A stretch of 55,925 nt of DNA from a virus (lineage: Duplodnaviria > Caudoviricetes): positions 1 to 55,925 of IMG/VR virus record IMGVR_UViG_3300027967_000009; one strand, written 5' to 3'. Positions within the stretch are counted from its first letter, which is position 1; the number at the start of each line of letters is the position of its first letter. The position numbers and the translations under genes were made by a program. Shown here piece after piece: positions 3,877-55,925 of the stretch. Under the pieces are notes generated by a model. That model ran no database searches, had not been told where the DNA came from, and saw only the letters and a list, made by a program, of their open reading frames with translations.

Positions 3877-4512
3877 ATGTATCGTGACGAAATAAGCCCT
3901 GAAATGAGGCTCTTTAGCCCATCTGGTGAAAGACTATATTGTACTGCTGACGAAAGAGCTAGATTTCTTGATGCAGCTCAAGACGAAGATCCAATAAATA
4001 GAATGTTTTGCCAAGTTCTTCATTATACCGGTTGTCGGCCGCGTGAAGCGATAGAGCTGGAATATGAGCGAATACTCATTGATGATTGCTCTATTGTATT
4101 TCGCTGCTTAAAGAAACGTAAAACTGATAATCAAGGCAGAATTAAACAACCACAATATAGAAGTGTACCTGTACCAAAACTATTAATTGAAAACCTAGAT
4201 TTAGTTTTTGGCGTTCGCAGAGTTCAAGCAAAAAAGAAACAATTGTCTGAGCGCCTTTGGCCTAAATGTCGTACAACTTATTACCGCATGATCAAGAACG
4301 TAATGGCTAGAGCAAACATTCATGGAGAAATGGCAACGGGTAAAGGTTTGAGGCATGGCTTTGGTGTCGCAATGGTTACAGCTAAAAAGCCCTTACCTAT
4401 CCATATACTATCTAGACTAATGGGCCATTCAGACAGTAAAACCACTGAGATTTATTTACAGATAATTGGAGAAGAACAGCGGCAATTAGTGAATGATGCT
4501 TGGGATAGCTAA
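3877..4512 (+). CDS. Small tyrosine recombinase (catalytic domain only)
   Basis: TGCR, KGLRHGF, LMGHS and TEIY catalytic motifs; 211 aa. Confidence 0.9.
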   Translation: MYRDEISPEMRLFSPSGERLYCTADERARFLDAAQDEDPINRMFCQVLHYTGCRPREAIELEYERILIDDCSIVFRCLKKRKTDNQGRIKQPQYRSVPVPKLLIENLDLVFGVRRVQAKKKQLSERLWPKCRTTYYRMIKNVMARANIHGEMATGKGLRHGFGVAMVTAKKPLPIHILSRLMGHSDSKTTEIYLQIIGEEQRQLVNDAWDS

Positions 4513-5802: not shown

Positions 5803-6036
5803 ATGAATTTAGAGAATGTAGTCGCGATAGGAAAAATGATGCTCGTAGTCGTTATTGGCTTGCCGTGGATTATGGGCGTTGTTCTTTTTTCTACTTCTTG
5901 GTTTGGTGACGGACTTTCATCAGGCAACCAATCTAAATTACTTAGAAAGCAACAAGAATTAATTGAAGAATGCGAAAGCAACCTGCCTAGAAATCAACAT
6001 TGTGTACTAGTGGCACAAGTAATCGAAACAGAATAA
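5803..6036 (+). CDS. Small membrane-anchored hypothetical protein
   Basis: N-terminal hydrophobic segment, C-terminal CE..LPR.Q.C; RBS present. Confidence 0.7.
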   Translation: MNLENVVAIGKMMLVVVIGLPWIMGVVLFSTSWFGDGLSSGNQSKLLRKQQELIEECESNLPRNQHCVLVAQVIETE

Positions 6037-7761: not shown

Positions 7762-8340
7762 ATGCAGTATTTATTATTTGGCGATTTAGAAACAGGCGGC
7801 TTGAACGGTCGTTTAGATAACGGTGCTTTAGGAATGGAATATTACCCAATTTTTGAAGTGGCTTTCATTGTTACAGATAACGAGTTAGAGCAAATTGGTG
7901 AGCCTTTACGTATCGTTATTCATCATAGCGATGAAACTATAGCAAGGTCACATCAATGGGCGTTAGAAACGCATACAGAAAGTGGTCTAATTAAAGAAGT
8001 AAAAAAATCAACGGTTACATTGCAGCAAGCAGAGAAAATGGTTATAGACCACCTAAAAACTCTTGGTATTGATGCTTACAACCGTGAAACAAAAACTGGT
8101 GCTGTCTTTGCTGGCAACTCTATTATGTTTGATCGCTCTTACTTAATGTGTCAAATGCCTAAGCTGCATGAATACTTACATTACCGTCAACTTGATATTT
8201 CAGCATTAGCATTATTTGCTAGAATTTTTCAGCCTGCATTAGAAAGAAAGGTGGTGGAAGCAAAACAATATAAACATAAAGCGCTCCCTGACATTATTGA
8301 GTCTATCAATGAGCTTAAAACCTATCGCGAGGTTTTTTAA
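7762..8340 (+). CDS. orn: Oligoribonuclease-like DEDDh exonuclease
   Basis: DLETGG, AGNSI.FDR..L, LHYR.LDIS, HKAL.DI.ESI.ELK.YR match Orn motifs. Confidence 0.85.
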   Translation: MQYLLFGDLETGGLNGRLDNGALGMEYYPIFEVAFIVTDNELEQIGEPLRIVIHHSDETIARSHQWALETHTESGLIKEVKKSTVTLQQAEKMVIDHLKTLGIDAYNRETKTGAVFAGNSIMFDRSYLMCQMPKLHEYLHYRQLDISALALFARIFQPALERKVVEAKQYKHKALPDIIESINELKTYREVF

Positions 8341-34986: not shown

Positions 34987-35015
34987 TGTATACGGTCTTT
35001 TTGCATCTTGGGAAA

Positions 35016-35024
35016 ACTATACCA
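35016..35024 (-). promoter_or_regulatory. Candidate late promoter (extended -10)
   Basis: TGGTATAGT about 30 bp upstream of the terminator, pR'-tR' layout. Confidence 0.4.
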
Positions 35025-35212
35025 TCAAAAAGGGGCAAAACCAGCCCCAAAAATGGGAAGTTTCTGACATGCGTTCCAGAATTACTAATATCGTGGTTTT
35101 TCTCGCTTTCAGTAGGAGAATCATGCCAACTTGTTAAACGTTATTGTTTTTAACAAGTTATTGGCTAAAGGTTTACTGGTGAAAAGAGGAAAAACGATCC
35201 TTAGTAACAGTG

Positions 35213-35482
35213 TTATATTGCCTCGGGCAATTCAGGTAATGGCATCCAGTGTGTCATATCTTCTCCACCTATATTGCACCAGTACCCATCGTCAAATTCA
35301 CATTCAAAAAAGTAACTCCCATTAAACCCTAAAATCTTATTCCCTTGCATAGCTTCTGGTGGAGCCTGATTTACATCTTTAAGCACAAAATGTTTTTCGT
35401 ACCAATCATTAACCTGTTTAGCATTAAATACTGGCGTTTCGTCTGCAAATGTTCTCGCTGTTCTAGCTAGTAATCTTTCCAT
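35213..35482 (-). CDS. Cassette 1: DUF551-like protein
   Basis: C-terminal THWMPLPELP; GAGG RBS before ATG 35482. Confidence 0.75.
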   Translation of the reverse strand: MERLLARTARTFADETPVFNAKQVNDWYEKHFVLKDVNQAPPEAMQGNKILGFNGSYFFECEFDDGYWCNIGGEDMTHWMPLPELPEAI

Positions 35483-35511
35483 TTTTAGTTCCTCTTTCAT
35501 TTAATCGGCAA

Positions 35512-35597
35512 ATATAACAACTGCTATCAAACGACAAATAACAGCTGGTTCGTTCCTCACAGACGCTTTATATTTGCATCTGTGCTTTAGGTTATGT
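35512..35597 (+). repeat. attC site 1
   Basis: ATATAAC-AACTGCTATCAAACGAC...GTTATGT. Confidence 0.75.
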
Positions 35598-35828
35598 TCT
35601 CACAATAAACGGTGTAGTGTGCTGCAATACATAACGTTTAATTACCAAGCGCACATCACCACTACCTCGAAAGTTTTTCTTTATATAGTGCCTTGCTTCA
35701 TCTTCAGTTTCTGCATCTATCTCAAAAGCAGGCGCACCAACTGGCCCAACAAAATATTTAATAATGTCTCTGTCATGGTTCGCTTCAACACAACCCTTTT
35801 GACCGCAAATATTACATTCACCACTCAT
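35592..35828 (-). CDS. Cassette 2: hypothetical protein with N-terminal CxxC..C..H motif
   Basis: GAGG RBS, MSGECNICG; stop codon in GTTA core. Confidence 0.7.
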   Translation of the reverse strand: MSGECNICGQKGCVEANHDRDIIKYFVGPVGAPAFEIDAETEDEARHYIKKNFRGSGDVRLVIKRYVLQHTTPFIVRT

Positions 35829-35850
35829 CTTTAAATCCTCAAAATAAATC

Positions 35851-35904
35851 ACATAACAAAGCGCATCAATCGGACTCTACGAGCCGTTGTGCTTGGGGTT
35901 AGAA
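35851..35904 (+). repeat. attC site 2 (short)
   Basis: ACATAAC-AAAGCGCATCAATCGGAC...GCCGTTGTGCTTGGG-GTTAGAA. Confidence 0.85.
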
Positions 35905-35907
35905 TGG

Positions 35908-36075
35908 CTAATCGATAATATATATTTTATCCAGCAGCTTTTTTAAATTATCTATATCTTCTTTGTATCGCAGAACTAAAAATGCACCATCTTCTTTATC
36001 GCACAACACAATGCCATTATTAGTGGCTAAAGAGGTGTATTCTCTTTTTGAATGTTTCTCTACTATGCTTACCAT
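35908..36075 (-). CDS. Cassette 3: hypothetical 55-aa protein (MVSIVEKHSKREY...)
   Basis: Read manually; AGGA RBS; fills the cassette. Confidence 0.6.
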   Translation of the reverse strand: MVSIVEKHSKREYTSLATNNGIVLCDKEDGAFLVLRYKEDIDNLKKLLDKIYIID

Positions 36076-36103
36076 TTCAATCCTACCTTTTGTGTTAATG
36101 CCA

Positions 36104-36185
36104 ATCTAACAAATAATTCAAACGGACTGTCAACAGTTCGCTCGTTCCTCACGCTGTTTCCAGCGCGCTTAATTTGAGGTTAGCA
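36104..36185 (+). repeat. attC site 3 (VCR-like)
   Basis: ATCTAAC-AAATAATTCAAACGGACTGTCAAC...CAGCGCGCTTAATTTGAG-GTTAGCA. Confidence 0.88.
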
Positions 36186-36395
36186 GGAATTAATCGACCA
36201 CCATACTGCGCCGTCATTTTTTACTAATCCACGCCTTTTTAATTTTTGCAAATTTTGACTTACATCTAATCTAGTTAGTTGATTTTGCAGATGACTAAGT
36301 TCATCTTTATTTCTTAGGGTTAAAAATATACTCCATGCACTTCGTCTGTTTTTTGGTTTTAACTCTGCCAACACATGGCTTTCAATATTTTGCAT
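36180..36395 (-). CDS. Cassette 4: small winged-helix-like protein
   Basis: VSQNLQKLKRRGLV; GGAGG RBS. Confidence 0.65.
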   Translation of the reverse strand: MQNIESHVLAELKPKNRRSAWSIFLTLRNKDELSHLQNQLTRLDVSQNLQKLKRRGLVKNDGAVWWSINSC

Positions 36396-36438
36396 AACTA
36401 CCTCCTAAATAATTACAATTCAACGCGTAGCACAACAA

Positions 36439-36699
36439 TCAAACATCCCACTCACATTGTGCAAACCACCATGCTTTATTAAGATCTTTCGTTCTCGCGT
36501 ATTCAGCTAAGAAAGCATCAAAGCACTCTACCGCTAAACCACAGTTGCATATCAGCTCTAGGTATTCATTTAAGTCGGTAGCCTTATGCCCAGTAAAAGG
36601 CATTATTAATTCGCCGCTAACAACGGCTTCAACGGGATTGCTAACAGTTGGCTTCTCGTCAAAGGCTTCCTCTAATTCTTTATTTGTATTTCCAAACAT
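36439..36699 (-). CDS. Cassette 4: hypothetical protein starting inside attC4
   Basis: AAGGAG RBS and ATG lie in the attC loop. Confidence 0.65.
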   Translation of the reverse strand: MFGNTNKELEEAFDEKPTVSNPVEAVVSGELIMPFTGHKATDLNEYLELICNCGLAVECFDAFLAEYARTKDLNKAWWFAQCEWDV

Positions 36700-36743
36700 T
36701 TATTCTCTCCTTTGGGTCGCAACCCATTAATCTAAGGTTAGGC
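36615..36743 (+). repeat. attC site 4 (long)
   Basis: CGCTAAC-AACGGCTTCAACGGGATTGC...GCAACCCATTAATCTAAG-GTTAGGC. Confidence 0.85.
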
Positions 36744-36745
36744 GG

Positions 36746-36949
36746 TTAATTCAATTTCAGCGTTTTGTGTAAACTGTCAAAATCAGCCGCTCTAACATCT
36801 TTTACTATTTTATTTATTTGGCTATCTGGCAAACCAAGCTTGTTTAATGTTTGCTCAAAAGCTATTTGTAATCTTGTTCGGTCATTAGCAACCTTGCAAA
36901 GTTCTTCACCAAACTTTTGCAGCATTCTAGCTTTATCACCAGTAGCCAT
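36746..36949 (-). CDS. Cassette 5: hypothetical helical protein downstream of acb2
   Basis: Starts 3 nt after the acb2 stop. Confidence 0.65.
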   Translation of the reverse strand: MATGDKARMLQKFGEELCKVANDRTRLQIAFEQTLNKLGLPDSQINKIVKDVRAADFDSLHKTLKLN

Positions 36950-36952
36950 AAC

Positions 36953-37177
36953 TTAAAAACTCTCTGGCTGTGCTACAGCGCGCACAGCAGCCATAAAGCC
37001 TTTTTGTAAATCCGTTTTAGCTACAGCAACCCATCGTTGATCTAACTGTTTATTACTTTGTAGCTCCTCGATTAAAACTCCAACCTCTTCGGCTTTCGCT
37101 TTAACTGCGTTCATAGCATCAATCTCAGCTTGACTCAAATCACGGTAGCCTTTAATTTTCTTGTGTTGATTATCCAT
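36953..37177 (-). CDS. acb2: Cassette 5: Acb2-family anti-CBASS cyclic nucleotide sponge
   Basis: [23 protein letters not shown]...RW.A..KTD.Q.G.MA..RA.AQP.SF matches the recalled Acb2 signature; GAGG RBS before ATG 37177. Confidence 0.88.
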
Positions 37178-37216
37178 TGTATTTCCTCTTTCTTTGATTA
37201 AGTTGCCAAGCAAACC

Positions 37217-37292
37217 GCCTAACAACGCGTTTAAATTTGATTGCTACAGTTGCTACGCGCCTTGCGCAACAACTTAACGCAAATGGTTAGTT
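37217..37292 (+). repeat. attC site 5
   Basis: GCCTAAC-AACGCGTTTAAATTTGATTGC...GCAACAACTTAACGCAAATG-GTTAGTT. Confidence 0.85.
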
Positions 37293-37412
37293 TGCTTTAT
37301 CGTAGTTCGCATACATCTAGCTTAATATAAATGTAATACTGATAGATATTAACGAACCGATCGTATAGCCGACCCAAAACCCCAAGCTCTCTAATTTAAT
37401 GTATTTAATGTA

Positions 37413-37625
37413 TCACCGCCTTTGTGTATCAATTGCTAACTGTTTAAGTTTCGGTAGTTCTTTTTCAAATTCCAATATCAAATCTTCTTCATTAAGCTTT
37501 CTAGAAAAAATAAAAGCACACTCTGAGCAGTGTATTTGACTAACACTTATTTCAAAGCTACTTCTTATCCCTAAGCCAACATAACTTTGATTGCACATAG
37601 GGCATTTTTGTCCGCTGAGATTCAT
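37413..37625 (-). CDS. Cassette 6: zinc-ribbon protein
   Basis: CPMC...CSEC. Confidence 0.65.
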   Translation of the reverse strand: MNLSGQKCPMCNQSYVGLGIRSSFEISVSQIHCSECAFIFSRKLNEEDLILEFEKELPKLKQLAIDTQRR

Positions 37626-37813
37626 GGTGTAACCTCTGGCTCGACTGATAAAGCTTCAACAACAGCATCTACAGCCCACTTGTGAGGCTCAAACGCTTGT
37701 GCTTCATCGTCTGTTTCTGGCAAGTAATCATGCCTACCTGTTATTGCTTTAGCATGCTTTAATGCGTGTTTTTGTAATAACTCTCTTGCTTTGCTTTCTT
37801 GTTGTGTTTTCAT
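37622..37813 (-). CDS. Cassette 6: hypothetical protein
   Basis: ATGA overlap with next gene; YLP....A..F.PH.W.V.A. Confidence 0.65.
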   Translation of the reverse strand: MKTQQESKARELLQKHALKHAKAITGRHDYLPETDDEAQAFEPHKWAVDAVVEALSVEPEVTP

Positions 37814-37847
37814 ATTTTTCTCGCTTATCGTTTAGCGCTGTCAGCAA

Positions 37848-37918
37848 AACTAACAACACGTATCAAAGGAATTTAACAGTAAGTTACCCTGTTAAATCCT
37901 CTGTACTATGGGTTATGC
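37848..37918 (+). repeat. attC site 6
   Basis: AACTAAC-AACACGTATCAAAGGAATTTAACAG...CTGTTAAATCCTCTGTACTATGG-GTTATGC. Confidence 0.85.
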
Positions 37919-38113
37919 GGTTATCTTGTCTTGCTCGAATTTTCGCCCTTGATCAAACGCCTCTTGTATTTTTCTAGCTATAACCTTGTTTATAGCTTCT
38001 ATTTTTCGGTGCTCTGCATCTGCATCTTTCCCAAAATCAGCGTCTATCTTTCTGTGTATTTCTTCATACTCAAAATCATAAAGCTCACAAAAAACCTTTT
38101 CTTTTACTTCCAT
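37913..38113 (-). CDS. Cassette 7: hypothetical charged protein
   Basis: Stop in GTTA core; start ATG 38113 or TTG 38128. Confidence 0.65.
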   Translation of the reverse strand: MEVKEKVFCELYDFEYEEIHRKIDADFGKDADAEHRKIEAINKVIARKIQEAFDQGRKFEQDKITA

Positions 38114-38136
38114 CTTCTCTATCTCCAATAGTTACC

Positions 38137-38209
38137 GCCTAACAACCGCAATCAAATGAAGTTAACAGTCGCTACGCTCGGTTAATTCATCTGTTCCATA
38201 CGGTTATAA
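38137..38209 (+). repeat. attC site 7
   Basis: GCCTAAC-AACCGCAATCAAATGAAGTTAAC...GTTAATTCATCTGTTCCATACG-GTTATAA. Confidence 0.8.
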
Positions 38210-38401
38210 GGCTCTCTTAAACTGTATCTCAACCTCATAAGGAGCCAAAACAGTATCTGTTTCACCACAAAACGGACAGTAGATTTTTTGCTGTGGCGGG
38301 TTACTCATTAGGTGTCCGCCTTTAGGGTCTGCGATCATCATTCCGCCACAGTCACAATACTTGGCACCTTTTGCTACTGCTTGTATATTTTGTACTTCCA
38401 C
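38204..38401 (-). CDS. Cassette 8: zinc-ribbon protein
   Basis: CDCGG.M...L.SNPPQ....CPFCG; AAGGA RBS, GTG start. Confidence 0.7.
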   Translation of the reverse strand: MEVQNIQAVAKGAKYCDCGGMMIADPKGGHLMSNPPQQKIYCPFCGETDTVLAPYEVEIQFKRAL

Positions 38402-38416
38402 TTTAGTTCCTTAGCC

Positions 38417-38457
38417 TTATAACAAGGCAATTAATCGTGACTGCGCAAAGGTTAGTC
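38417..38457 (+). repeat. attC site 8 (truncated)
   Basis: TTATAAC-AAGGCAATTAATCGTGACTGC left arm present; right arm largely missing before GTTAGTC. Confidence 0.6.
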
Positions 38458-38463
38458 AACATG

Positions 38464-38988
38464 CTAGTTTGTCACCAAATACCCTTGTGCCTGAAAATTA
38501 ACTCTCTCTTGATTTATCTCTGGTAGCGTTTTTTTCAAGCCGTTAGGGTGGTTAGGAAGTATCGTATGTGTTTTCTGTTGCTGCTGAAAACCACCTTGCT
38601 GTTGAGGTGCTTGTTGACCTTGGAAGCCGCCTTGTTGACCAGAAGGCTTACCATCTAACATTTGCATTACACCGTTAAAGCCTTGTAGAACAATCTCGGT
38701 AGTATATTGGTCTTGCCCTTGTTGGTTGGTCCATTTGCGCGTTTGTAGTTGACCTTCTACATAAACTTTTGAGCCTTTTTTCAAATAGTCTCTGGCAATT
38801 TCTGCTAACTTTCCAAATAACACAACTCTATGCCATTCGGTTTTTTCTTTTTGCTCGCTTGTTTGTTTGTCTTTCCATTTATCTGAGGTGGCAATGGTAA
38901 TGTTTGCTACAGCACTATTGTTTGGCAAAAATTTAAACTCTACGTCTTTACCTAAGTTACCAACTAAAATCACTTTATTTACTGACAT
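38464..38988 (-). CDS. ssb: Single-stranded DNA-binding protein
   Basis: [39 protein letters not shown]. Confidence 0.95.
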
Positions 38989-43615: not shown

Positions 43616-44131
43616 TCATTGATCAAATAGTGAGATCAATGTACCCTTCTAAACGACTTTAATTTTCTGATTAATCATATTTGCTTAATCGCCGAAAAAT
43701 CGGCTAGAATATTGAAGAATTAATAATATTTAATAGATTTATTTACTAAATACTTATGCTGCGCTGAATTTTAGACAAAAAAATACCGTTTCAGCAAAAA
43801 ACGGTATCTCATTTTTATCTTGTGTTTAGCTGGTTTTATTAAAGAGCTCACTACTCTTACATAAAAGGCTAAGTTGTTGTAAATAAAGGTTTTTACAAAA
43901 AGTTCCAACTTGTTCGTAGTCGCTTTTTCCTTACGGAATCAGCAGGATTTTTTATTTACGTTTTTAATATTAAAAAACTTTTCTTAAAAAATCAATACTG
44001 CCCACCTTTTTGTAAAAAATAATTTTAAAACTAAAAACAATAATGAGTTTTAACAATGTTTTTTTTCAGCACAATTTTTACAAAAATAATTTCAAAAAAA
44101 ATAAAAATGAAAACTTTTTCTAAAGAAATTT

Positions 44132-44211
44132 TAGGGGGGGTGGGCAGGGTGCCCACCCCTAACTTTTTTGCAAAATTTAAAGGGGGTGGGCAGGGTGCCC
44201 ACCCCCCCCTA
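44132..44211. repeat. Two GC-rich palindromes GGGGTGGGCA-GGG-TGCCCACCCC upstream of repA
   Basis: Copies at 44137-44159 and 44182-44206 in an AT-rich tract. Confidence 0.85.
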
Positions 44212-44240
44212 TTTTTATTTGAATTATGTGGAGGTTGGTC

Positions 44241-47200
44241 ATGAAAAAACTAACCTTACAACAATTTTATCAAGACAAATTTAGAGGTGACGCCACACTT
44301 TTAATGGCTCACCCTGAAGCATTTAATCAATTGTCTGCTGAGGCAGATAATGCCTATGTGGTTTGGTCTGATATTTGTAACGACATTGACCCAAGCAGAA
44401 TGGGCGGTAAAAACAGTGATAAGTTCACTGGTAAAGTGCCTGTTTCAAACACTAAATACAAAGGCCGTGCGGCTGTTTATAGTAACCTACGTAGCTCGGA
44501 CGATAATACCTTTGAATACCCCACGGTTAACTTTGTATTAAAAGGTAATAACGTTGGTGGTTGGTCTGGTCTGTCTTTGTTAGTAAAACTATACAAAGAA
44601 CACAAGGGTACTATTACTGACAATGAACGACTTAAATGGCAGCGCGAGAGCGAGGCTAAAAAGAAACAATTACTTGCAAAACAAAGCGCAGCAAAGCAAG
44701 AAGGCGAACGCAAAGAAAAACGAAAACACGAATTAAATCAACAGTATAGTGCACTTTTTGATGTTTCACCAAAAGAAGATGGCAGCCAGAGTTACTTAGT
44801 TAAGAAAAAAATAGCTGAGGTGGTTCAATACATAGATATTCGTCGCTGTGTTGAGTTTGATGATGTATATAGCTTAGGTAGAAAAGGCCAAGAGTTTTTA
44901 GCGATTCGCTTTATCGATATTGACGGTAACTATGTTGGTCTTCAACGAATATATGAAGATGGCGCCAAGCTCAACACACCAGGCTTTGATTTTAGCAACG
45001 GTGCACACTGTGTTATTGGTGACATTGATGCTGCAGACGAAAACTATATTTACGCCGGTGAGGGTTTTGCTACTTGTGCAAGCGCTATGCTTGCTATGCA
45101 CAACCATAAAATTGCTAATAATCGCAAAAAAACAGCAGTTATCATAGGTATCAACTCAAACAATTTAAAGAAATGTTTGGCTCTTTTTAAAGACCAAGAA
45201 GCTGACCTAAAAATAAATCATCTGGCTGATAATGACCAATGGAAAAACCAACAAGGTAAAGGTAATGCTGGTTTATTAATTTCATGTTTTGCTGTTGATG
45301 TACTGGGTTATAAATCGGTGGTACCGCTTTTTGAAGATTACACCTTTGATGGTGTTGAATTTGATGAACGACCAACCGATTTTAATGATTTACATTGCCT
45401 TGCTGGGTTAAGTGAGGTTAGACGACAACTAAAAGCCCAGCGCAATAAATTTAAATCTTCAGGTAAAAGCCCTTTTGATAAAACTTGCCGTGAGCTGCGT
45501 TATATTGCTGCTGGTAACGATAATAAAAAGCTCTTTGAGTTAGTTAATAGAGCAATTCAACAAGGTGTCCAACTTTACCCTATACATTACGGTGTGGCTG
45601 ATATTCTTGCTTGTATTGAACACAACATTAAACACCTTTATCACCTGTTTGATAAAGTGAGTTACTTTAATGAACTAAGTGGTCGCTTAAATTGGATTAT
45701 AGGTAAACGTGTCAATAATGCTCAGGCATTCCGTTCGTTTAGTGAAGAGGTTATTTCTAAGCCTCACGTTAACTATAAAAAGTTTAATGACACCCGAATA
45801 ACGCCCGAGATTTATGCGTACATTAAAAACTTAAATGGGGCCGTAGTGGTAAGGGCGCCTATGGGTAGTGGTAAAACCCAACACTTACTTAGCCCACTGA
45901 TGGCCAAATCAGATAGAGCTGCGTATTTTGCACACCGAGTATCATTAATCGCCTCAAGTGTTAGTAATTTAAATAAACGCAGAACAACTCACGCAATTAA
46001 TAAATTTTCGCCCGTTGAACTTGAGCATGTAGATCATATCTTTGCCCAATCTTTTACTCCGGTTGGCTTGAGTAAGTCATTGCCGACTGATTTTTTAGTT
46101 CAAAACTACCAAGACTTTAAAGGTAACGGTATGGGTGTGTTTGCTCGCTCTGTTGAGCAAATGGCCATGTGTATCAACTCTATTACTAATCCATCGTTTT
46201 CACCATTATTGGAGGATTTGGATTTTTCAGCATTTGATGAAGCCGCTCAAACATTGCGCCACGTAGCAGATGGTAGTGCATGTGATAAACCTGAAATGGT
46301 TTATAACGCTATGCTTAAAACCATTAAAAACAGCAGCAAGCAGGTTATTTTGTGTGACGCTGATGCCAATGATGAAGTGATTGAAATGTGCGAACAAGCT
46401 CGCCCTGGTGAAATAATTCATGTGGTTGAGCTAGACACCGATTTCAGCGACATAAAAGTAAAATATACAGACAATGGCGATCAGGTTTTCAACCAAGTGT
46501 TTACTGCTGTCGAAAATAATGAAAAAGTTATCGTTGCTAATGACTCGGCCACCAACGGCAAATCCATGTATGAGCGACTTAAAGAGCGCTTTCCTGCTAA
46601 ACGCTTCTTGTTTATTTACCAAGACTCAAAAGGCAATGCTGATGTTGATTACTTCAACCAAAACCCTGATTTAGCGGTAAACGAGCAGCAATATGATGCT
46701 GTTATTTACTCTCCTTGTATAAGTTCTGGTGTTTCGCTTGAGTCGGGCTATTTCACTAAACATTTTGCTATTTTATGCGGCACCGTAGCACCATCTGACG
46801 CCATTCAAATGATTAGACGCGATCGCTGTGCTAAAGAATTCATTATCGGGTTTAACAAACAAAACACCACATACCCCGAAACTAAAGAAGAAATTATTAT
46901 CGGTATGATCAAAGCGGATGATATCAATCTTACGCTCGATTTATCTGAAGGCATGATGCGACTTGGCCGTATGTACACCAAATTTGATGATATGCGTATC
47001 AATGTTATTGCTAAGCAAAATAGAGCGCGGAATGACTTTGCTAATAACATGCTATTGATACTGCAAGGGGATAAATATCAGCTTGAGCGCATTGCTGAAA
47101 ATGAAGTGGAAAAAGAAATAGGTAATGCACAACGTAACCTTGGTAGAGAAATAGCCAAAGCGCGTGATTTAGAGCTTCAATTAAATCAGGAAACACCCGA

Positions 47201-48110
47201 ACCAGAAACAGCTGAGCGACTTCGTAAAGAAGATTGCGTGAGTGAAGAAGAACGGGCGCAACTAAAACGTTATGATATTGAAACACAGTTATGTTCACAA
47301 GTTACCGCTGACACTATCGCGTTTAATGATGACCGCGGCATAAGTAAAGTAAAAAACTTTGAACTACTGAAAGGTAATATCAGCCAAGCCAATGCTTACG
47401 ATGTTTCTGAAATTGCCACCAATATTTCCTTTAGTGCTCGAGAACGAAAAACCGCAAAAATGAATCTACTGCACCAGGTGTTTTCAATACTAGGTGTTGA
47501 TAAGGCGTCTGGTGAAGGGGAGTTTACTGGCGAGCAAATGCGCCTAGTTCGTGATTCGCTGTTAGGTAGCGAAGACGATATTATGCTGTATAACACTACT
47601 CGTATAGGTGGCTACATTCACCCTAAAACGCGCAAGAAAAAATGTGAGACAACCTTTGTTAAAAATATTTTATCTAAATGCGGCCTCGAGCTTGGCTCAC
47701 GTTTAGAAGGTAAAGCGAGAAAACGCATATCATTTATCAAGCCTGGCGTATGGGATGTTATGCAATCCTACTTTAAAGCCCGTCAAGAACAAAGCATTTC
47801 GTCACTTGAGCCGTTGCAATATGATACTGATGCGGAGGTACTTAAGCGATCGGGTTTAACGATTGATATAAACCTTATTAATAAAGCCGATCACCAAAGT
47901 ATTACTTACGCAAAAATGGCTGGAAACGCTTTAACGGCGCTGGTTAACGAGGCTATCGAAGGATTGAATATTAGCTTTGAAAATGCGGTAAGCATGCTTG
48001 ATGGTGAAACTATCACTGATATTCTAAATGATGACATGCCAATTGGCATGTTGCGCTCATATTTCGCGACTCAAGAGAAATATGAACGGCAATTAATGGC
48101 TGTTTGTTAG
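44241..48110 (+). CDS. repA: N15-type RepA primase-helicase
   Basis: TOPRIM (EGFAT, ADND, TDFNDLH), APMGSGKT, DE motif; GGAGG RBS before ATG 44241. Confidence 0.92.
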   Translation: MKKLTLQQFYQDKFRGDATLLMAHPEAFNQLSAEADNAYVVWSDICNDIDPSRMGGKNSDKFTGKVPVSNTKYKGRAAVYSNLRSSDDNTFEYPTVNFVLKGNNVGGWSGLSLLVKLYKEHKGTITDNERLKWQRESEAKKKQLLAKQSAAKQEGERKEKRKHELNQQYSALFDVSPKEDGSQSYLVKKKIAEVVQYIDIRRCVEFDDVYSLGRKGQEFLAIRFIDIDGNYVGLQRIYEDGAKLNTPGFDFSNGAHCVIGDIDAADENYIYAGEGFATCASAMLAMHNHKIANNRKKTAVIIGINSNNLKKCLALFKDQEADLKINHLADNDQWKNQQGKGNAGLLISCFAVDVLGYKSVVPLFEDYTFDGVEFDERPTDFNDLHCLAGLSEVRRQLKAQRNKFKSSGKSPFDKTCRELRYIAAGNDNKKLFELVNRAIQQGVQLYPIHYGVADILACIEHNIKHLYHLFDKVSYFNELSGRLNWIIGKRVNNAQAFRSFSEEVISKPHVNYKKFNDTRITPEIYAYIKNLNGAVVVRAPMGSGKTQHLLSPLMAKSDRAAYFAHRVSLIASSVSNLNKRRTTHAINKFSPVELEHVDHIFAQSFTPVGLSKSLPTDFLVQNYQDFKGNGMGVFARSVEQMAMCINSITNPSFSPLLEDLDFSAFDEAAQTLRHVADGSACDKPEMVYNAMLKTIKNSSKQVILCDADANDEVIEMCEQARPGEIIHVVELDTDFSDIKVKYTDNGDQVFNQVFTAVENNEKVIVANDSATNGKSMYERLKERFPAKRFLFIYQDSKGNADVDYFNQNPDLAVNEQQYDAVIYSPCISSGVSLESGYFTKHFAILCGTVAPSDAIQMIRRDRCAKEFIIGFNKQNTTYPETKEEIIIGMIKADDINLTLDLSEGMMRLGRMYTKFDDMRINVIAKQNRARNDFANNMLLILQGDKYQLERIAENEVEKEIGNAQRNLGREIAKARDLELQLNQETPEPETAERLRKEDCVSEEERAQLKRYDIETQLCSQVTADTIAFNDDRGISKVKNFELLKGNISQANAYDVSEIATNISFSARERKTAKMNLLHQVFSILGVDKASGEGEFTGEQMRLVRDSLLGSEDDIMLYNTTRIGGYIHPKTRKKKCETTFVKNILSKCGLELGSRLEGKARKRISFIKPGVWDVMQSYFKARQEQSISSLEPLQYDTDAEVLKRSGLTIDINLINKADHQSITYAKMAGNALTALVNEAIEGLNISFENAVSMLDGETITDILNDDMPIGMLRSYFATQEKYERQLMAVC

Positions 48111-48574: not shown

Positions 48575-51421
48575 TTAGTTAACCAAACTTATCTGTGATT
48601 TTGGGGCAAAAAGTGGTGCATAAAAACTATCTTTCAATGCCTCGTAATGGCTGTTATAAACCATTTCAGCTTCACGCATAGCATTAGTGTACTGCTCATG
48701 TTTTCCATGCTCAAAATAGATATTAGCAAGCTGTAAGTAGATGTTCATCTTGTCAGGCGAGTGTGTTTTTTCTAAGTCACGCCACACAAACAAGGCCTCA
48801 GCCTTTTTGGCCAACTCAATACCTAATTCACTTTGTGCGTTAATTTGCCTTTCTATTAAAGCAATATCCAACATAACCCTAGCATTATCATCAGCCACAA
48901 AGCCTTGCTGTCCTTTTCTTAATGCTAACACCTCGGCAATACTAGCCAGTACCTTATCGTCATTATAATTGGCAAAGTCATAGTAAAGTTTAACCAACTG
49001 CAACTCATAGGGCTCAACCATATCGTTATAATCTTCATTGGTTTTCAATAAAGTGCTCAGCAGTGTATCAGCAACGGGTTTTAACAACGGGTTAGTGCGG
49101 TCAAAGCCGGTAAACTCTAAATAATTTATAAGCAATACACGAATAGAGTCTAAACCGACAAAGCCATATCGGTCAGCGCTTTTATTATAATTTTCAAAAT
49201 AGGTTATCGCTTTATGAACCTCTCGCTCAGCGCTGGCTATATCCCCTTGGTAAAGGTAGCTTACACCTAACAAGTAACTGTTAAGCATCCACCCGTCAAA
49301 TTTTCTCCAACCATAATAATCGGTAGCGGCTTTAATACTTTGCGTGGCTAGCGGTAAGTCAAGCAAGCGATTAACCACATATTGGTTTCGCCACGACTCC
49401 ATTACTAATTCATTATCATTGCCAGGTAACTCACTGGCCATGTCAATAGTTTGTTTGGCTGCGTCTAACGCTTCATTATAATCACCAAGCTCATATAAAA
49501 CCCGAGACTTTAAATTAATGCTTTTAATCAACAGTTCGTTACCACTAACACTGTCAGGTATGTGATGTATTGCTTGTTCAATACTGCTCTGTGCATCGGT
49601 TAATACTGCAGTTAAATACCTGTTATGATCGTCTTCGCTTACACCATCGCCTGGGCTAATGTTTGAACCATCGTAGTAATAAAAATACTCGCGGGCTTGG
49701 TAATATTTTAATAAACCCTGTTGGTCCAACGCTAAATCCTGCCAATACAGTTTTTCTATTTGTTTTAACGTACTAAGTGCTTTGTCATCATCGCCATAAA
49801 CCTCAGAAATATATTTAACATCGGTATCAAATAGCGCTAAGTAACCCAAAGCATGCTCAACAGTAACAAAGCCATTTTTTTCTAACTCAAGCATAAAAGG
49901 TTGGGCAGCAGCTTGCGCTTGTTCAACCCTATCATTAAAAGATAACGCCTTAGCATACAACGCAGAAACAAGGGGTAAGTATTTGTTTTTGGCAACCGAA
50001 ATCGCTTTTTTATACAGCGAAATAGCAGCAGCAACTGATAACGGATCACCTTTTTGCATGGCAGCATTCGCGATAGCCATCGCGTGCTGATATACCAGTG
50101 CTTTATCAGCCTCAGTGTTATCAATAATACTCTTTAGATTTGTTAACGCGTCAAATTGTTCGTTTTGAACGTAATGAGCGTAATTATTAGCTATCTGCGT
50201 TAAAAATGTGTTGTTGTTATGCTGCTGCTGAATATAACCCGAAGACGTATAAGAAATAACAGAAAAAGTAATACAACTTACCGCCCCTGCAGTAGCTAAT
50301 GCGGCATGAACAGGCTTTAAAAAAAGATGCTTATAAATACGATAAAAGTAATTGTTATTATGTGATTTCACATAACCTAGCTCTAAAAAAACCGACAAAT
50401 CATGACTGAATTCAGCCATTGTTTTATAACGTTTTTCTTTATTTGGCTCAGTAGCTTTTAATAAAATACTATCAAGCTCTTTTATCCAGCGTTTATATTT
50501 TTTCTCATCGGGTGAAAAACTAATATTGTCGCTTGGTAAATTTTTTCTGACATCAAAGGGTGGTTTCAACCTGGTAAGCAGTTCGTATAAAACCAAAGCA
50601 ATTGAATAAACATCGCTACCAAAGGTTAAAGGCTCATTGTTTTTAAGCTCAGGGCTTGAATAATCACAACTAAACACTTCGGCATACTCGTAATTTTTTT
50701 CATCAACTTTCTTTTTAGCACGTTGGGCAATACCAAAATCACAAAGTAAAGGGTCCCCTTGCTTATCCATCAAAATATTTGAAGGTTTAATGTCAGCATG
50801 TATATAAGAATAACTTGAGTGGGCAAAATGTAATGCATCGCAAACTTTTAAAACTGCTTGGATGGTGTTTTTAATGTTTGAAAAAATCAAACTATTTAAT
50901 AAACCGTCAGTAATATTGCCGTAGTCAACATAATCCATCACGTAAAAAGGCAGTTTTAAATTGTTATAATCAATAACGCCAGCATCAAAAACACGCGTGA
51001 TATATTTATGCTTGAGCTGCGCCATAATGTTGGCTTCGCGATCTATTAAGTCATAATCATAAACATTAATTAAATGTGGCTTAACCACTTTAACCACGGC
51101 CTTTTGATTAACCAGTAAACCATCTAACCGCTCAGCATAAAAAATATGGCCCATACCACCAGAGGTAATATAGTTCATTAGGGTGTAGTTGCCCACGTCT
51201 TTACCCAGCAGTGTTTTGGGGTCAAAAGAGCTCTCAACAAAAGAACTAAAGCTAACAGAATAGGCATCGGGTGACATTTCAACATCACTAGCCACCTCAA
51301 TCAAATTCAGCACATCGTTTTTTAACGTTTCATCATTGCCACATAACCTATCAAGCTTTTCATCTCTTAATCTGGGTGGCGTATTCTCAATAACGTTCCA
51401 TATCTCGAATAAATCAGCCAT
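48575..51421 (-). CDS. Membrane Hanks-type Ser/Thr kinase with TPR-like C-terminal domain
   Basis: GGMG, VVK, HADIKPSN, DFG, SPE, DVYS; one TM segment; long helical repeat region. Confidence 0.92.
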   Translation of the reverse strand: MADLFEIWNVIENTPPRLRDEKLDRLCGNDETLKNDVLNLIEVASDVEMSPDAYSVSFSSFVESSFDPKTLLGKDVGNYTLMNYITSGGMGHIFYAERLDGLLVNQKAVVKVVKPHLINVYDYDLIDREANIMAQLKHKYITRVFDAGVIDYNNLKLPFYVMDYVDYGNITDGLLNSLIFSNIKNTIQAVLKVCDALHFAHSSYSYIHADIKPSNILMDKQGDPLLCDFGIAQRAKKKVDEKNYEYAEVFSCDYSSPELKNNEPLTFGSDVYSIALVLYELLTRLKPPFDVRKNLPSDNISFSPDEKKYKRWIKELDSILLKATEPNKEKRYKTMAEFSHDLSVFLELGYVKSHNNNYFYRIYKHLFLKPVHAALATAGAVSCITFSVISYTSSGYIQQQHNNNTFLTQIANNYAHYVQNEQFDALTNLKSIIDNTEADKALVYQHAMAIANAAMQKGDPLSVAAAISLYKKAISVAKNKYLPLVSALYAKALSFNDRVEQAQAAAQPFMLELEKNGFVTVEHALGYLALFDTDVKYISEVYGDDDKALSTLKQIEKLYWQDLALDQQGLLKYYQAREYFYYYDGSNISPGDGVSEDDHNRYLTAVLTDAQSSIEQAIHHIPDSVSGNELLIKSINLKSRVLYELGDYNEALDAAKQTIDMASELPGNDNELVMESWRNQYVVNRLLDLPLATQSIKAATDYYGWRKFDGWMLNSYLLGVSYLYQGDIASAEREVHKAITYFENYNKSADRYGFVGLDSIRVLLINYLEFTGFDRTNPLLKPVADTLLSTLLKTNEDYNDMVEPYELQLVKLYYDFANYNDDKVLASIAEVLALRKGQQGFVADDNARVMLDIALIERQINAQSELGIELAKKAEALFVWRDLEKTHSPDKMNIYLQLANIYFEHGKHEQYTNAMREAEMVYNSHYEALKDSFYAPLFAPKSQISLVN

Positions 51422-52028
51422 TTTTACTACTCAACAAATGCGATTTAATAACGGCATCAGCAAACTCTAGGTAGCGATAAAAGGTGCTTTCACTTATACC
51501 GAGTATCACTGTTATTTTTTGAACATCAACCCCCCAAAGCCTATATAAACTAAAGGCAATAGACTGCTGTTTTGCTTTGCTTTCTAAGACTGAAATAGCT
51601 TCATCTAGCATTAAAAAAGAGTGTTCACTGTTTAATGAGTTACTGTCTGACAAATACGCGTTTGGGCAGGCACCTATTTGAACTCTATTATCAGCCCCAT
51701 GCCTGCTCAACTTTCTGGCTTCATCAACCAAGGTTGAGTACACCATTTTTCTCAATAAAATAAACAAATCGTTAATGGAGTGAAAATAAATATTATTTTG
51801 TTTGGTAAGTAGCTTAATAGAAACCGTTTGAGCAATATCGTTAACACCAAACAGTTTTAACGGAGTAGCAACCACTTTACCTTTGCTAAATTCTAACGCT
51901 GAAAATTTAGTAATAAATGGCTGTAAATAAATAACCAAATCATTTCTAGCTTGTTGGCAACCAGCGTTCCATTGCTCAATTAAATAGGTAAGCTTTTCAA
52001 CATCAACATCAACATCAACATCAAGCAT
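51414..52028 (-). CDS. ECF sigma factor, kinase-associated type
   Basis: LT.LI.QW..G...A...L, LVD.ARK, LDEA...L, LGISEST..R...A. Confidence 0.82.
   Translation of the reverse strand: MLDVDVDVDVEKLTYLIEQWNAGCQQARNDLVIYLQPFITKFSALEFSKGKVVATPLKLFGVNDIAQTVSIKLLTKQNNIYFHSINDLFILLRKMVYSTLVDEARKLSRHGADNRVQIGACPNAYLSDSNSLNSEHSFLMLDEAISVLESKAKQQSIAFSLYRLWGVDVQKITVILGISESTFYRYLEFADAVIKSHLLSSKNG
51999..52022. repeat. (AACATC)4 microsatellite at the sigma N-terminus
   Basis: Encodes DVDVDVDV. Confidence 0.75.
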
Positions 52029-52731
52029 TGTTAGCCCCCTTTAATTCAAATAATTGCTTTGCTGTTAATACGGTTATTTCATTTGAACATCGTAACGTGT
52101 CTATCCACACTTGGTTTTGCTTAACCACAACGTTCTGGCTGTTTGTATGACCATGAACAGTAAGATCAATATTGCTGATGGCTTGTTCTAAAGACTTTGG
52201 GCGGTTAAATTTTTCACTAGACCAAAACAATAAATCTTGCTGATCGTCAGGTAAATCAGAGTGGATAATATCATGCCAATCATCGGGCGCTTGGGCGTGG
52301 GTTAACCCAATATTCCCATAAGGTGTTTCAATGGTAATGGCTAAATGCATTTTGGCATAAACAATCGCCATAAAAAAAGTAAGTTGTTTGTCGGTGTTTT
52401 CTAGCTGTAGCAACCATTGACCACCAATGTTAAGCAAGGTGTCAATCAACTCAGGGTTAACCCTAAGATCTAAAAGCATGTCTTCGTGATTGCCCATCAC
52501 CGCAAAGAACCAAGGTTCAAGCAATAAATGTAAACACTCAGCTGACTTGTCTCCTCGGTTAATCAAATCACCTACCGAAAACACCCGGTCACCGTTATCA
52601 GCATTAAAACCAGCGCAAGCCAATGACTTCATCAGCACATCGTAATGGCCATGAACATCGCCAATAAAGTAATCCGTTCCTTTTTCATTAACACTAAAGT
52701 GCTGATGATAATTAATCCGTTTTTTTGGCAT
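52021..52731 (-). CDS. PPP-family Ser/Thr phosphatase (lambda NinI/PphA-like)
   Basis: GDVHG, VGDLINRG, GNHE, HGHT, IDT. Confidence 0.92.
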   Translation of the reverse strand: MPKKRINYHQHFSVNEKGTDYFIGDVHGHYDVLMKSLACAGFNADNGDRVFSVGDLINRGDKSAECLHLLLEPWFFAVMGNHEDMLLDLRVNPELIDTLLNIGGQWLLQLENTDKQLTFFMAIVYAKMHLAITIETPYGNIGLTHAQAPDDWHDIIHSDLPDDQQDLLFWSSEKFNRPKSLEQAISNIDLTVHGHTNSQNVVVKQNQVWIDTLRCSNEITVLTAKQLFELKGANNA

Positions 52732-52782
52732 AACAAACAAAAGTAAAAAGTGATGCTTTATAGTACACCAAAGCTAAAAATG

Positions 52783-55799: not shown

Positions 55800-55925
55800 A
55801 ACATACATAGTATCAACTACCACCACACTATCACCCATGTATGATATACATTAAACCTATACGTATAGGTTTAATGTATATCATACATGGGTGATAGTGT
55901 GGTGGTAGTTGATACTATGTATGTT
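55800..55925. repeat. Right hairpin telomere (telR), read through as a perfect palindrome
   Basis: Centre 55862|55863; 55819-55862 identical to 3-46. Confidence 0.95.

Follow-up and report, generated by a model that had tools for sequence, protein, structure and literature searches.

An integron-type cassette array with inverted genes in an N15-like telomere phage-plasmid

What is the row of small genes and repeats that lies between ssb and the terminator/late-promoter region of an N15-like telomere phage-plasmid (a linear plasmid), and what moves its parts? The window, i.e. the whole stretch of 55,925 nucleotides that was analysed, holds at 35148-38457 eight attC-type sites (s1-s8) and a boundary site (s0), which delimit eight cassettes with 12 small genes, all on the minus strand. 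The favoured answer, held with moderate confidence, is that the region is a CALIN (a cluster of attC sites without an integron integrase) belonging to the phage itself, with cassettes moved in trans by an integron integrase of the host. An earlier note, made from the letters alone, had reported eight attC-like sites; all eight were recovered in place, together with the degenerate ninth, s0, whose core supplies the first cassette end of that note, GTTATAT. Site bounds on the + strand run from the 7-mer containing TAAC through the 7-mer containing GTTA. The features are as follows.

35048-35032 and 34985-34962, minus: two terminator-like stems for minus-strand transcripts (terminator scan)
34998-35069, minus: segment conserved with the backbone relative L001 (86% identity)
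35148-35218, +: s0, degenerate site at the array boundary, with a GTTATAT core (35212-35218) that forms the left end of cassette 1
35213-35591, minus: cassette 1, ORF 35213-35500 (95 aa, DUF551, E 8e-6) plus s1; stop is the core TTA
35512-35597, +: s1, attC-type
35592-35898, minus: cassette 2, ORF 35592-35852 (86 aa, no family) plus s2
35851-35904, +: s2, attC-type
35899-36179, minus: cassette 3, ORF 35908-36075 (55 aa) plus s3
36104-36185, +: s3, attC-type
36180-36737, minus: cassette 4, ORFs 36180-36395 (71 aa) and 36439-36699 (86 aa) plus s4
36615-36743, +: s4, attC-type, long; overlaps the start of the second ORF of cassette 4
36738-37286, minus: cassette 5, ORF 36746-36949 (67 aa) and predicted Acb2/Tad1-family gene 36953-37177 (from ATG) plus s5
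37217-37292, +: s5, attC-type
37287-37912, minus: cassette 6, ORFs 37413-37625 (70 aa, zinc-ribbon-like) and 37622-37813 (63 aa) plus s6
37848-37918, +: s6, attC-type
37913-38203, minus: cassette 7, ORF 37913-38128 (71 aa, acidic) plus s7
38137-38209, +: s7, attC-type
38204-38451, minus: cassette 8, ORF 38204-38401 (65 aa, zinc ribbon, weak Lar-like match) plus s8
38417-38457, +: s8, 41 nt, degenerate/truncated
38464-38988, minus: SSB gene, last backbone gene upstream of the array, same transcription direction

The segment at 34998-35069 was read by inspection as a probable late promoter/Q-antiterminator region, where the array-bearing operon would end. The L001 array has a homologue of s0 at its left boundary, and s0 is probably the backbone site where the array was inserted.

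The ends of each cassette had been described as complementary, and all eight quoted pairs are present, four of them perfect and four with one mismatch. Over the 7 nt flanking the cores, mean cassette-end complementarity in the window is 5.25/7, against 1.67/7 for the two flanks of one site and 2.40/7 for all left-by-right flank pairs, and 1 in 20,000 random re-pairings attained the observed sum. Eight other viral loci give 5.03 (0 of 20,000 permutations), and the control, a V. anguillarum integron represented by 16 bona fide attC sites adjoining intIA in MK672802, gives 5.87. The geometry agrees as well: window and Vibrio sites have in common a layout of TAAC, 8 nt, an extra base, 3 nt, an extra base, 3 nt and an extra base, with bulged bases on the TAACAA arm in 7/9 window sites, 59/72 other phage-type sites and 11/16 Vibrio sites. 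Three single-base bulges with Vibrio-like spacing are found on the TAACAA arm of s2, and the arms of s4 carry an extra C and A at positions matching Vibrio sites.

A covariance model built from the Vibrio sites only (R1), applied without filters to the two strands of the 55.9-kb genome, recovered s2, s5, s3, s6 and s4 with exact predicted ends, all on the + strand, at ranks 1, 2, 4, 6 and 18 among 31 matches at E<=10. The best match genome-wide is s2 (23 bits, E 9e-4), followed among the sites by s5 (17.9 bits) and s3 (15.9 bits), with s4 at 8.8 bits; E-values of the recovered sites are marginal (9e-4 to 6), and chance-level matches interleave with them, such as 19107-19164 at 16.2 bits. Sites s1, s7 and s8 are not among these matches. 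A second model, of the phage attC subtype (R2), had s1-s7 as its sole matches in the window at E<=1; s1 (69.5 bits) and s7 (59.2 bits) belong to its training set, s3 scored 55.4 bits, and s4, outside the training set, was still matched with exact ends at 26.5 bits (E 0.006). Neither model detected s0. Folding of the bottom strands, a check proposed in the earlier note, gave energies only weakly better than those of shuffles (z -0.7 to -3.2), and s0 folds no better than shuffles (+0.8). The Vibrio control sites fold no better than the window sites (z -0.01 to -1.5), and the best-folding bottom strand, that of s7 at -12.6 kcal/mol, is equalled by 3 of 200 shuffles. Geometry, cassette-end complementarity and the Vibrio-derived model confirm, at the level of sequence, that the repeats are attC-type sites.

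The orientation of the genes is unusual. The + strand had been likened to the VCR top strand; judged against V. anguillarum rather than V. cholerae repeats, the likeness holds, with TAACAA on the + strand at 8/8 sites. Genome-wide this motif occurs 39 times on the + strand, nine of them at s0-s8, and 38 times on the minus strand. Since the sites recovered by R1 are all on the + strand, this is the attC top strand and the genes lie on the bottom strand; all 12 ORFs are indeed on the minus strand, as had been claimed, as is the longest ORF of each of the 8 cassettes. Therefore each hairpin precedes its gene in the mRNA, and the gene usually ends with a TAA formed by the last three bases of the cassette. 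The five stop codons said to fall in the GTTA core were located in the cassettes at 35213, 35592, 36180, 37913 and 38204, which open with the stop-codon TTA. Across the arrays of this subtype (16-17 arrays), 61/65 cassettes have their longest ORF on the bottom strand.

Compared with Vibrio chromosomal integrons (MK672802), the array shares the TAAC...GTTA core pair with AA after the top-strand TAAC, an unpaired spacer, 2-3 bulged bases at equal spacing on the TAACAA arm, cassette-end complementarity, and a family-wide attC consensus on unrelated genes. It differs in having no intI, attI or Pc; its sites are heterogeneous (54-129 nt) whereas the Vibrio repeats are near-identical at ~120 nt, bottom-strand genes number 8/8 versus 4/15, and stops in the GTTA-side core 5/8 versus 1/15. 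Inverted cassettes of bacterial integrons likewise carry a gene opposite to the attC top strand; these are a minority, typically toxin-antitoxin cassettes with their own promoters. One promoter-bearing cassette of this kind has been described (PMC9892861). Unlike these, the window array is inverted as a whole, and its transcription would come from an outside promoter, probably the early promoter. Promoter-like matches in the array region number 6 versus 10.6 expected, and a terminator scan of the same region found no T-runs after the site stems. Phage attC clusters have already been published, whereas the systematic inversion is new.

Arrays of the same layout recur in many marine phages, on at least 16 further contigs of viral or metagenome origin, and the same attC subtype was found in arrays at 8 other viral and 8 metagenome loci, with one strand per locus for all sites. 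The subtype pattern occurs in 10 stretches in viral contigs; in 185,579 bacterial species genomes it occurs in 8 stretches, of which one locus looks real and the rest are at chance level. If host integrases handle these cassettes, spill-over to bacterial integrons might be expected, yet the pattern is almost absent there. The earlier note had proposed to compare cassette order across related phages. In L001, the single backbone relative that was recovered (RdgC 68% and SSB 83% identical), the order is not conserved: the corresponding locus holds two attC sites with other genes. Its array contains a 74%-identical homologue of the 63-aa gene of cassette 6, and an intact L001 site of 97 nt matches the TAAC side of s8 at 96% identity over 28 nt. 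In the metagenome run X1, cassette 6 (37285-37917) is a separate 633-nt unitig at depth 37.8, versus ~24 for the adjoining sequence; on either side alternative neighbours occur, starting within 1-5 nt of the two GTTA cores.

Such turnover might instead be explained if the sites were fossils derived from insertions by an integrase, with cassettes now exchanged by homologous or illegitimate recombination between similar repeats, and with hairpins acting mainly at the RNA level in cistron separation, processing or translation insulation. The model is PeSL cassettes of T4-type phages (PMC2839356, PMC4122927), in which repeated stem-loops likewise flank small, variable and mostly uncharacterised genes in early-operon hyperplastic regions and are tied to genes being gained, lost or replaced among close relatives. 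This explanation is unlikely but has points in its favour. Leader plus TAAC-side core segments of 35-70 nt are 80-97% identical between unrelated cassettes of different contigs, which suggests that recombination within the repeats takes place as well; identical 11-nt cassette ends flank different gene content in the window and L001; the match to cassette 6 in run X6 stops at 37861, within s6 and not at the core; no array has a linked integrase; and decay is seen in the two end sites, s0 and s8. Against it, cassette-end complementarity across 17 arrays equals that of a live integron in strength, and erosion would be expected without selection for the folded site formed in the circle. Furthermore, both break points of cassette 6 in X1 fall beside the cores, and the bulge geometry is kept in most sites of the family. 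The repeats also have no promoter-like or terminator-like signature, which argues that they are not PeSL-type; PeSL elements are described in those papers as promoter-plus-stem-loop units thought to move by homologous recombination, whereas the window sites have attC cores, bulges and a signature of site-specific insertion.

If the sites are live, which enzyme acts on them? The earlier note saw no intI, and none was found: the sole match of the integron-integrase model is a tyrosine recombinase of 211 aa at 3877-4512, which that note had not mentioned. The proposal that this enzyme, or a host Xer-type one, recombines the sites draws on its being phage-encoded, with a PF00589 match of 54 bits and weak similarity to XerA, XerD and IntI models, but it is very improbable. 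The protein consists of the catalytic domain only and scores 26-33 bits on the integron-integrase model against a cut-off of 265; its gene adjoins parAB, 31 kb from the array; and PF00589 has no match in nine other array-bearing viral records (the closest relative's and eight others), three of them 100% complete. Likewise, PF00239 has no match in the 5 array-bearing viral records searched, and V. anguillarum IntIA found none by tblastn in 97 loci totalling 593 kb, so that no recombinase appears to travel with the arrays. Passive capture of a host chromosomal integron piece by imprecise excision, as documented for Vibrio anguillarum phage Va_90-11-286_p16 (PMC9892861) and in keeping with the Vibrio-like geometry, is scarcely credible, because no intI, attI or host genes lie near the array, all its genes run with the phage operon and against the attC polarity (4/15 are inverted in the captured Vibrio array), the cargo is phage-type, the subtype pattern recurs in viral contigs but at chance level in bacterial genomes, and L001 has the same locus filled with other cassettes.

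In the preferred reading, a phage-owned CALIN served by a host integrase, eight cassettes, each with one or two small genes and one attC, were inserted serially at s0. In the mechanism proposed, the presence of an integron integrase in the host would let the bottom strands fold; the phage repressor carries an S24 self-cleavage domain, and the host integrase may be SOS-induced, as in many integrons. The bottom strand is the non-template strand of the early operon and, for a fork from repA, would also serve as the lagging-strand template. Replication presumably starts in or near repA (44226-48110), as in N15, and a leftward fork then puts the minus strand on the lagging-strand template, as the earlier note had reasoned. 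Such a placement favours attC folding and excision (PMC5371416). The integrase would cut the bottom-strand core between its A and C, excise circles and re-insert cassettes, and phages co-infecting integron-bearing hosts could thus trade small accessory and counter-defence genes by means of host integron integrases.

Shuffling by a host integrase in trans is supported, indirectly, by a published assay with Pseudoalteromonas phage PH101, in which IntI1 recombined PH101_attC1 and attC2 into attI1 and bottom strands were more active than top strands (PMC9892861). PH101 is among the array loci (100% identical to KR534323), and its only two R2 matches form its CALIN; they presumably correspond to the assayed attC1 and attC2. 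Among the phage CALINs of that source it is the closest, likewise carrying attC without intI in a phage genome and being of the same subtype by pattern and R2. The survey reported there found 17 CALINs in 10,705 phages, requiring at least 2 attC sites, and proposed a link between the DNA methyltransferases in their cassettes and overcoming host defence (PMC9892861). The present array differs in its 8 cassettes and its telomere phage-plasmid backbone; bottom-strand genes, core stop codons, a virus-restricted attC subtype and Acb2-type cargo are absent from the main-text Results of PMC9892861.

The cargo was said to be of phage type, and Acb2-like, DUF551 and PHROG families are indeed found in the array. 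The product of 36953-37177 matches Pfam Acb2_Tad1_hairpin (E 1.3e-21) and, in the PDB, 'p26' (8h2j/8ixz, E 1e-19) and 'Vs.4' (7uq2, E 9e-4), which points to an Acb2-like sponge, a putative anti-defence gene of the Acb2/Tad1 family, among the cassettes. The cassette 8 product matches the Lar family at E 0.005, below the family cut-off, and cargo across the array family includes methylases, Mom and Lar. The position downstream of ssb also recurs: at 4 of 52 other viral loci with a relative of the SSB gene, R2 matches lie just downstream of it, on the opposite strand.

The array between 35148 and 38457 was found to consist of eight cassettes bounded by eight attC-type sites, s1 to s8. All eight sites proposed in the earlier note, and all eight quoted pairs of complementary cassette ends, were located, and a degenerate ninth site, s0 (35148-35218), was added as the left boundary and turned out to be the source of the first GTTATAT. 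TAAC and GTTA, the inverse core and core ends of attC, are invariant across s0-s8, and the outer three core bases fit RYYYAAC / GTTRRRY loosely in the window sites, likewise in 16 real Vibrio sites. The latter come from the control integron of Vibrio phage Va_90-11-286_p16 (MK672802), with intIA and 16 repeats that run TAACAA ... GTTA on the strand bearing most genes; Qi et al. 2023 (PMC9892861) describe this phage as carrying intIA and a segment of its host's chromosomal array. As attC recombination crosses over at G|TT, the start of a cassette is expected to pair with the flank on the TAAC side of the attC that belongs to it, and this was found in the window. Over 7 nt beside the cores, the complementarity of cassette ends averages 5.25/7 against 1.67 for flanks of the same site and 2.40 for all left-by-right pairs, and the observed sum was matched by 1 in 20,000 random re-pairings. 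The real Vibrio array has the same signature (5.87/7 against 2.69).

The window sites are imperfect palindromes with an unpaired spacer and with extrahelical bases on one arm, as is expected of attC, and their arm layout is common to the Vibrio sites: TAAC, 8 nt, then three extra bases spaced 3 nt apart. The search for extrahelical bases, a check proposed earlier, placed them on the TAACAA arm in 7/9 sites with the spacing of the Vibrio sites, the exceptions being the decayed end sites s0 and s8. This excess recurs in 11/16 Vibrio sites and in 59/72 other phage-type sites; of the remaining phage-type sites, 8 are equal and 5 have fewer. A covariance model made from the 16 V. anguillarum sites (R1) was run unfiltered on both strands of the whole 55.9-kb genome and matched s2 with 23 bits (E 9e-4), s5 with 17.9, s3 with 15.9, s6 with 13.9 and s4 with 8.8, at E-values from 9e-4 to 6. 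All five have ends exactly as predicted and lie on the + strand, with chance-level matches interleaved among the 31 at E<=10; s1, s7 and s8 are not among the R1 matches at that threshold. This result is regarded as supportive, not decisive. Folding of the bottom strands, another check suggested earlier, gave energies better than those of shuffles by only a modest margin, and since this is also true of the real Vibrio sites, the low z-scores do not count against the window sites.

No Rfam family reached its gathering threshold anywhere in the window, and a generic repeat finder did not recover the sites because they differ by indels. RNAalifold on a MAFFT alignment of 15 sites gave zero consensus pairs because the 3' arms were misaligned; the arms were therefore compared pairwise, and a second model, built from phage-type sites (R2), was given 8 hand-set pairs. 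A function of the sites as terminators or promoters was rejected, with 6 promoter-like matches in the region where shuffles predict 10.6; minus-strand terminator-like sites with T-runs lie below the array, except for one weak match within s1. Nor do the window sites show the early promoter plus terminator-like stem-loop of a PeSL element. With eight sites in 3.0 kb on one strand, the locus is a CALIN, a cluster of at least two nearby attC sites without an integrase.

The claims that every gene is reversed and that the + strand is the attC top strand both stood. All ORFs (12/12) are on the minus strand; the five stop codons said to fall in the GTTA core correspond to 5/8 cassettes that start with TTA, the stop of a minus-strand ORF; and the top strand was confirmed by a bulged-arm criterion calibrated on the real Vibrio array, by which the minus strand would be the recombinogenic bottom strand. 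In the window cassettes the bottom strand carries the longest ORF in every case (8/8), in the real array the top strand does so in 11/15 cassettes, and the canonical layout, with the ORF on the top strand upstream of attC, was found in 0/8 window cassettes. In the sense of the mRNA, the order within a cassette is hairpin, short leader with ribosome-binding site, gene or genes, and TAA, the predicted cut falling immediately after this terminal TAA. The leader (ribosome-binding region) and the TAAC-side attC flank (window 38111-38145, 37789-37860) are 80-97% identical between cassettes with unrelated genes, and occur on the mutually unrelated contigs L063, L091, L072, L048, L050, L098, L042 and L011 from the searches. 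It looks as if hairpin and leader form a reusable module.

The array is placed in a complete viral record of 55,925 bases with the following features:

1-92, perfect palindrome without spacer at the left record end (46+46 nt)
44226-48110, RepA-like primase-helicase of 1294 aa
53756-55711, protelomerase, adjoining the right end of the record
55800-55925, perfect palindrome without spacer at the right record end (63+63 nt)

Further genes are those for ParA, a SopB-like protein, a CI-like repressor with S24 peptidase domain, a Q-type antiterminator, RdgC and SSB. The end palindromes look like assembly read-through of covalently closed hairpin telomeres, and the genome is therefore taken as an N15-like telomere phage-plasmid whose record shows the linear-plasmid (prophage) form. 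No close relatives were found in the phage collection: megablast of 33000-55925 gave zero matches, blastn of the array region gave only scattered matches to the Acb2-like gene, and tblastn of the protelomerase reached distant relatives only, at <=38% identity. The large terminase has its top match in Alteromonas phage P24 (50.6%), only a hint that may point to an Alteromonadales-type host. The interval from repA to the protelomerase contains two further minus-strand genes, one for a TPR-repeat Ser/Thr protein kinase of 948 aa (48575-51421) and one for a calcineurin-like phosphoesterase (52021-52740), and the pair resembles a lysogeny-expressed accessory or exclusion module.

The array lies at the 3' end of an operon on the minus strand, which starts near the repressor and continues via Q, rdgC and ssb. 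Below it follow, in order, two terminator-like stems with a conserved non-coding segment, read here as the late-promoter / Q region, and the lysis genes; a 21-mer conserved in this region was found on one contig alone, L001, the sole backbone relative of the window. In N15 the replication origin is within repA. For a fork moving leftward from repA, the minus strand is the lagging-strand template, and within the operon it is the non-template strand as well. According to Loot et al. 2017 (PMC5371416), a bottom strand folds and recombines more readily when it is on the lagging-strand template, whereas in 25/30 chromosomal integrons the bottom strands are on the leading-strand template. On the tentative mirror-image reading given below, the inversion would maximise folding by giving the bottom strand both of these roles, non-template strand and lagging-strand template. 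Directly upstream of repA is an inverted repeat rich in G/C runs (44122-44220; 38-nt arms, 79% complementary), which is kept in L001 and aligns there in both orientations.

Cassettes at this locus are subject to turnover. A fixed order in relatives would have spoken against the cassette interpretation; L001, a 51-kb contig whose RdgC and SSB are 68% and 83% identical to those of the window, carries different genes at the locus, with only two attC sites between ssb and the conserved late-promoter segment. The 63-aa ORF of cassette 6 is the only array gene common to both. In X1, a marine sediment metagenome from which the record may derive, the array was assembled except for 37285-37917, a separate 633-nt unitig at a depth of 37.8 against 24.7 and 22.9 in its neighbours, with a different sequence joining both ends. 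By + strand polarity this interval is cassette 6 (37287-37912) to within 1-5 nt, with boundaries at both cores. A contig from X6, an unrelated run from seawater, agrees with 37285-37861 apart from one difference and departs past both ends; the cassette 6 break points are at the core on the left and inside s6 on the right. Two further runs, X4 and X5, gave low-depth identical fragments only; four joints with short sides (21-29 letters) were left out, and array stretches without cover in X4-X6 carry no evidential weight. As the runs were seen as contigs, not reads, circles and rare variants are not visible in them.

These break points also bear on the main rival explanation, in which the sites are fossils now shuffled by homologous recombination. 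Some break points do lie within repeats, and the common 35-70-nt leader-plus-core segments suggest recombination inside repeats too; on balance, this account is judged rather improbable. The anatomy, polarity, insertion signature, variation and cargo of the array are matters of observation, and the explanation preferred for them is that a host integron integrase would act on the array in trans. As the earlier note had stated, intI is missing: the top TIGR02249 match in the window reaches 26-33 bits where the cut-off is 265, and is 31 kb from the array, and there is no complete integron of intI with adjacent attI and Pc. A search of 97 related loci gave no sequence resembling IntIA, and no recombinase accompanies the arrays elsewhere. 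A 211-aa tyrosine recombinase consisting of the catalytic domain only, not an integron integrase, is encoded beside parAB (3877-4512, +). Action of this recombinase of the phage itself on the sites is unlikely because it is absent from all 9 other array-bearing viral records, in which no counterpart was found, and its integrase-model score led to the same judgement. Passive capture of a host integron is contradicted by orientation, cargo and distribution.

An attC site is recombined by an integron integrase as a folded bottom strand, and for this subtype such activity has been published only for two sites of one phage. Qi et al. (PMC9892861) report a CALIN in Pseudoalteromonas phage PH101, where PH101_attC1 and attC2 were inserted into attI1 by IntI1 and the bottom strands were more active than the top. 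One R2-positive locus is 100% identical to Pseudoalteromonas phage H101/PH101 and has only two R2 matches, 1.4 kb apart, which we infer to be the sites assayed with IntI1. A preprint of Loot et al. states that integrases are also able to insert cassettes at non-att genomic sites, which would explain the first insertion at s0. The S24-type repressor would link prophage induction to the SOS response, which controls many integron integrases (PMC3108266). Points against a host integrase are the marginal per-site model E-values and the near absence of the attC subtype from bacterial genomes.

This subtype forms a family of its own. A pattern derived from the window and L001 (TAACAA, a gap, ACAG, a short gap and an 11-nt loop motif) matched 10 stretches on 9 viral contigs and 69 metagenome stretches, and 8 stretches in 185,579 bacterial and archaeal species (one genome each), of which only one locus looks real by R2. 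That model was built from 15 phage-type sites, s4 not among them, and at E<=1 in the window it recovers s1-s7 only, including s4. R2 arrays are present in 8 other viral loci, with 2-10 sites all on one strand per locus, and R2 matches 12 of the 28 longer metagenome loci searched (out of 69), eight of which hold at least two sites. The bottom strand carries the longest ORF of 36/39 viral and 25/26 metagenome cassettes (61/65), and the first TTA of the cassette is a bottom-strand stop codon in 43/64, against 1/15 in the real integron. The backbones vary, from a capsid-and-sheath module to a terminase module and a ribonucleotide-reductase region, and none of the metagenome loci is related to the window in its backbone. 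Of 52 other viral loci that encode an SSB relative, R2 matches 4, and in 4/4 the sites lie just downstream of ssb on the opposite strand, like the window. The only credible bacterial-genome locus is on a tubeworm endosymbiont contig, L023, with two same-strand R2 sites (5858-5929 and 7801-7864), and could be a prophage or a real integron.

The cargo of phage-type small genes, for which a counter-defence role had been envisaged, includes in cassette 5 a protein that belongs by sequence to the Acb2/Tad1 family of cyclic-nucleotide sponges, which are defined by their binding of signalling nucleotides, and is thus a putative sponge. It matches Pfam PF24729 with 76.9 bits (cut-off 27, E 1.3e-21) and, in the PDB, 8h2j and 8ixz (p26) at E 1e-19 and 7uq2 (T4 Vs.4) at E 9e-4; these chains are anti-CBASS sponges. 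The protein (36953-37177) has 74 aa, without about 19 central residues of the solved 92-93-aa chains, and may be a minimal variant. In L001 the Acb2-like gene (11696-11959) lies outside the array, directly after rdgC, and the same gene family is therefore both backbone gene and cassette cargo. Cassette 1 encodes a DUF551 domain and cassette 8 a zinc ribbon with a sub-threshold Lar-like match; in PHROGs, 7/10 cassette proteins had no match and the other 3 matched families of unknown function. A Pfam scan of 96 bottom-strand ORFs of at least 45 aa from 17 arrays (the window and 16 other contigs with the same subtype) gave 14 member-hits in 12 families: Lar (2), DUF551 (2), TET-associated glycosyltransferase, MT-A70, N6_N4 methylase, Mom, Acb2/Tad1, NinB, endonuclease VII, crAss001_48, a LysW-type zinc ribbon and a cytochrome c3-like family. 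About half of them point towards evasion of restriction or signalling-based defence.

Taken jointly, it is tentatively proposed, as a possibility short of an even chance, that marine phages hold their own mirror-image cassette pool, with a virus-restricted attC subtype, a gene on the bottom strand ending at the cut site, and host integrases used for counter-defence trade. The traders would be unrelated phages, including a telomere phage-plasmid, a myovirus-like contig and a 132-kb virulent phage, and the goods would be Acb2-like sponges, Mom, DNA methylases, TET-associated glycosyltransferase and Lar. The phage and bacterial pools would remain functionally separate, as a phage cassette in a bacterial integron would be antisense to Pc and a bacterial defence cassette in a phage antisense to the phage operon. 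An attC consensus shared by unrelated genes would mean that the cassettes are made in a phage context.

Phage CALINs have already been published (PMC9892861). In open-access papers and preprints, no account was found of systematic bottom-strand coding or cut-site stop codons in phage arrays, nor of a virus-restricted attC subtype or Acb2-type cargo for them. Integrons are viewed as bacterial devices, and in recent work their cassettes store anti-phage defence systems. The array suggests that this arms race has an opposite side, in which phages appear to keep counter-defence genes in flipped cassettes, possibly shuffled by the host's own integrase. With eight defined sites, a defined polarity and an anti-CBASS-type gene as cargo, it is a concrete testable system, which bears on the turnover of phage accessory regions, on where cassettes are made, and on why attC polarity matters relative to replication and transcription. 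About 80 small genes in the 17 arrays are flagged as candidates for new anti-defence functions.

Outside the array, the phage carries an oligoribonuclease (7762-8340, +), which scores 186.7 bits with the Orn model against a cut-off of 106 and whose homologues in 401 genomes sampled from a single bacterial class reach no more than 45% identity. As a nuclease of short oligonucleotides, it might bear on nucleotide-signalling defences.
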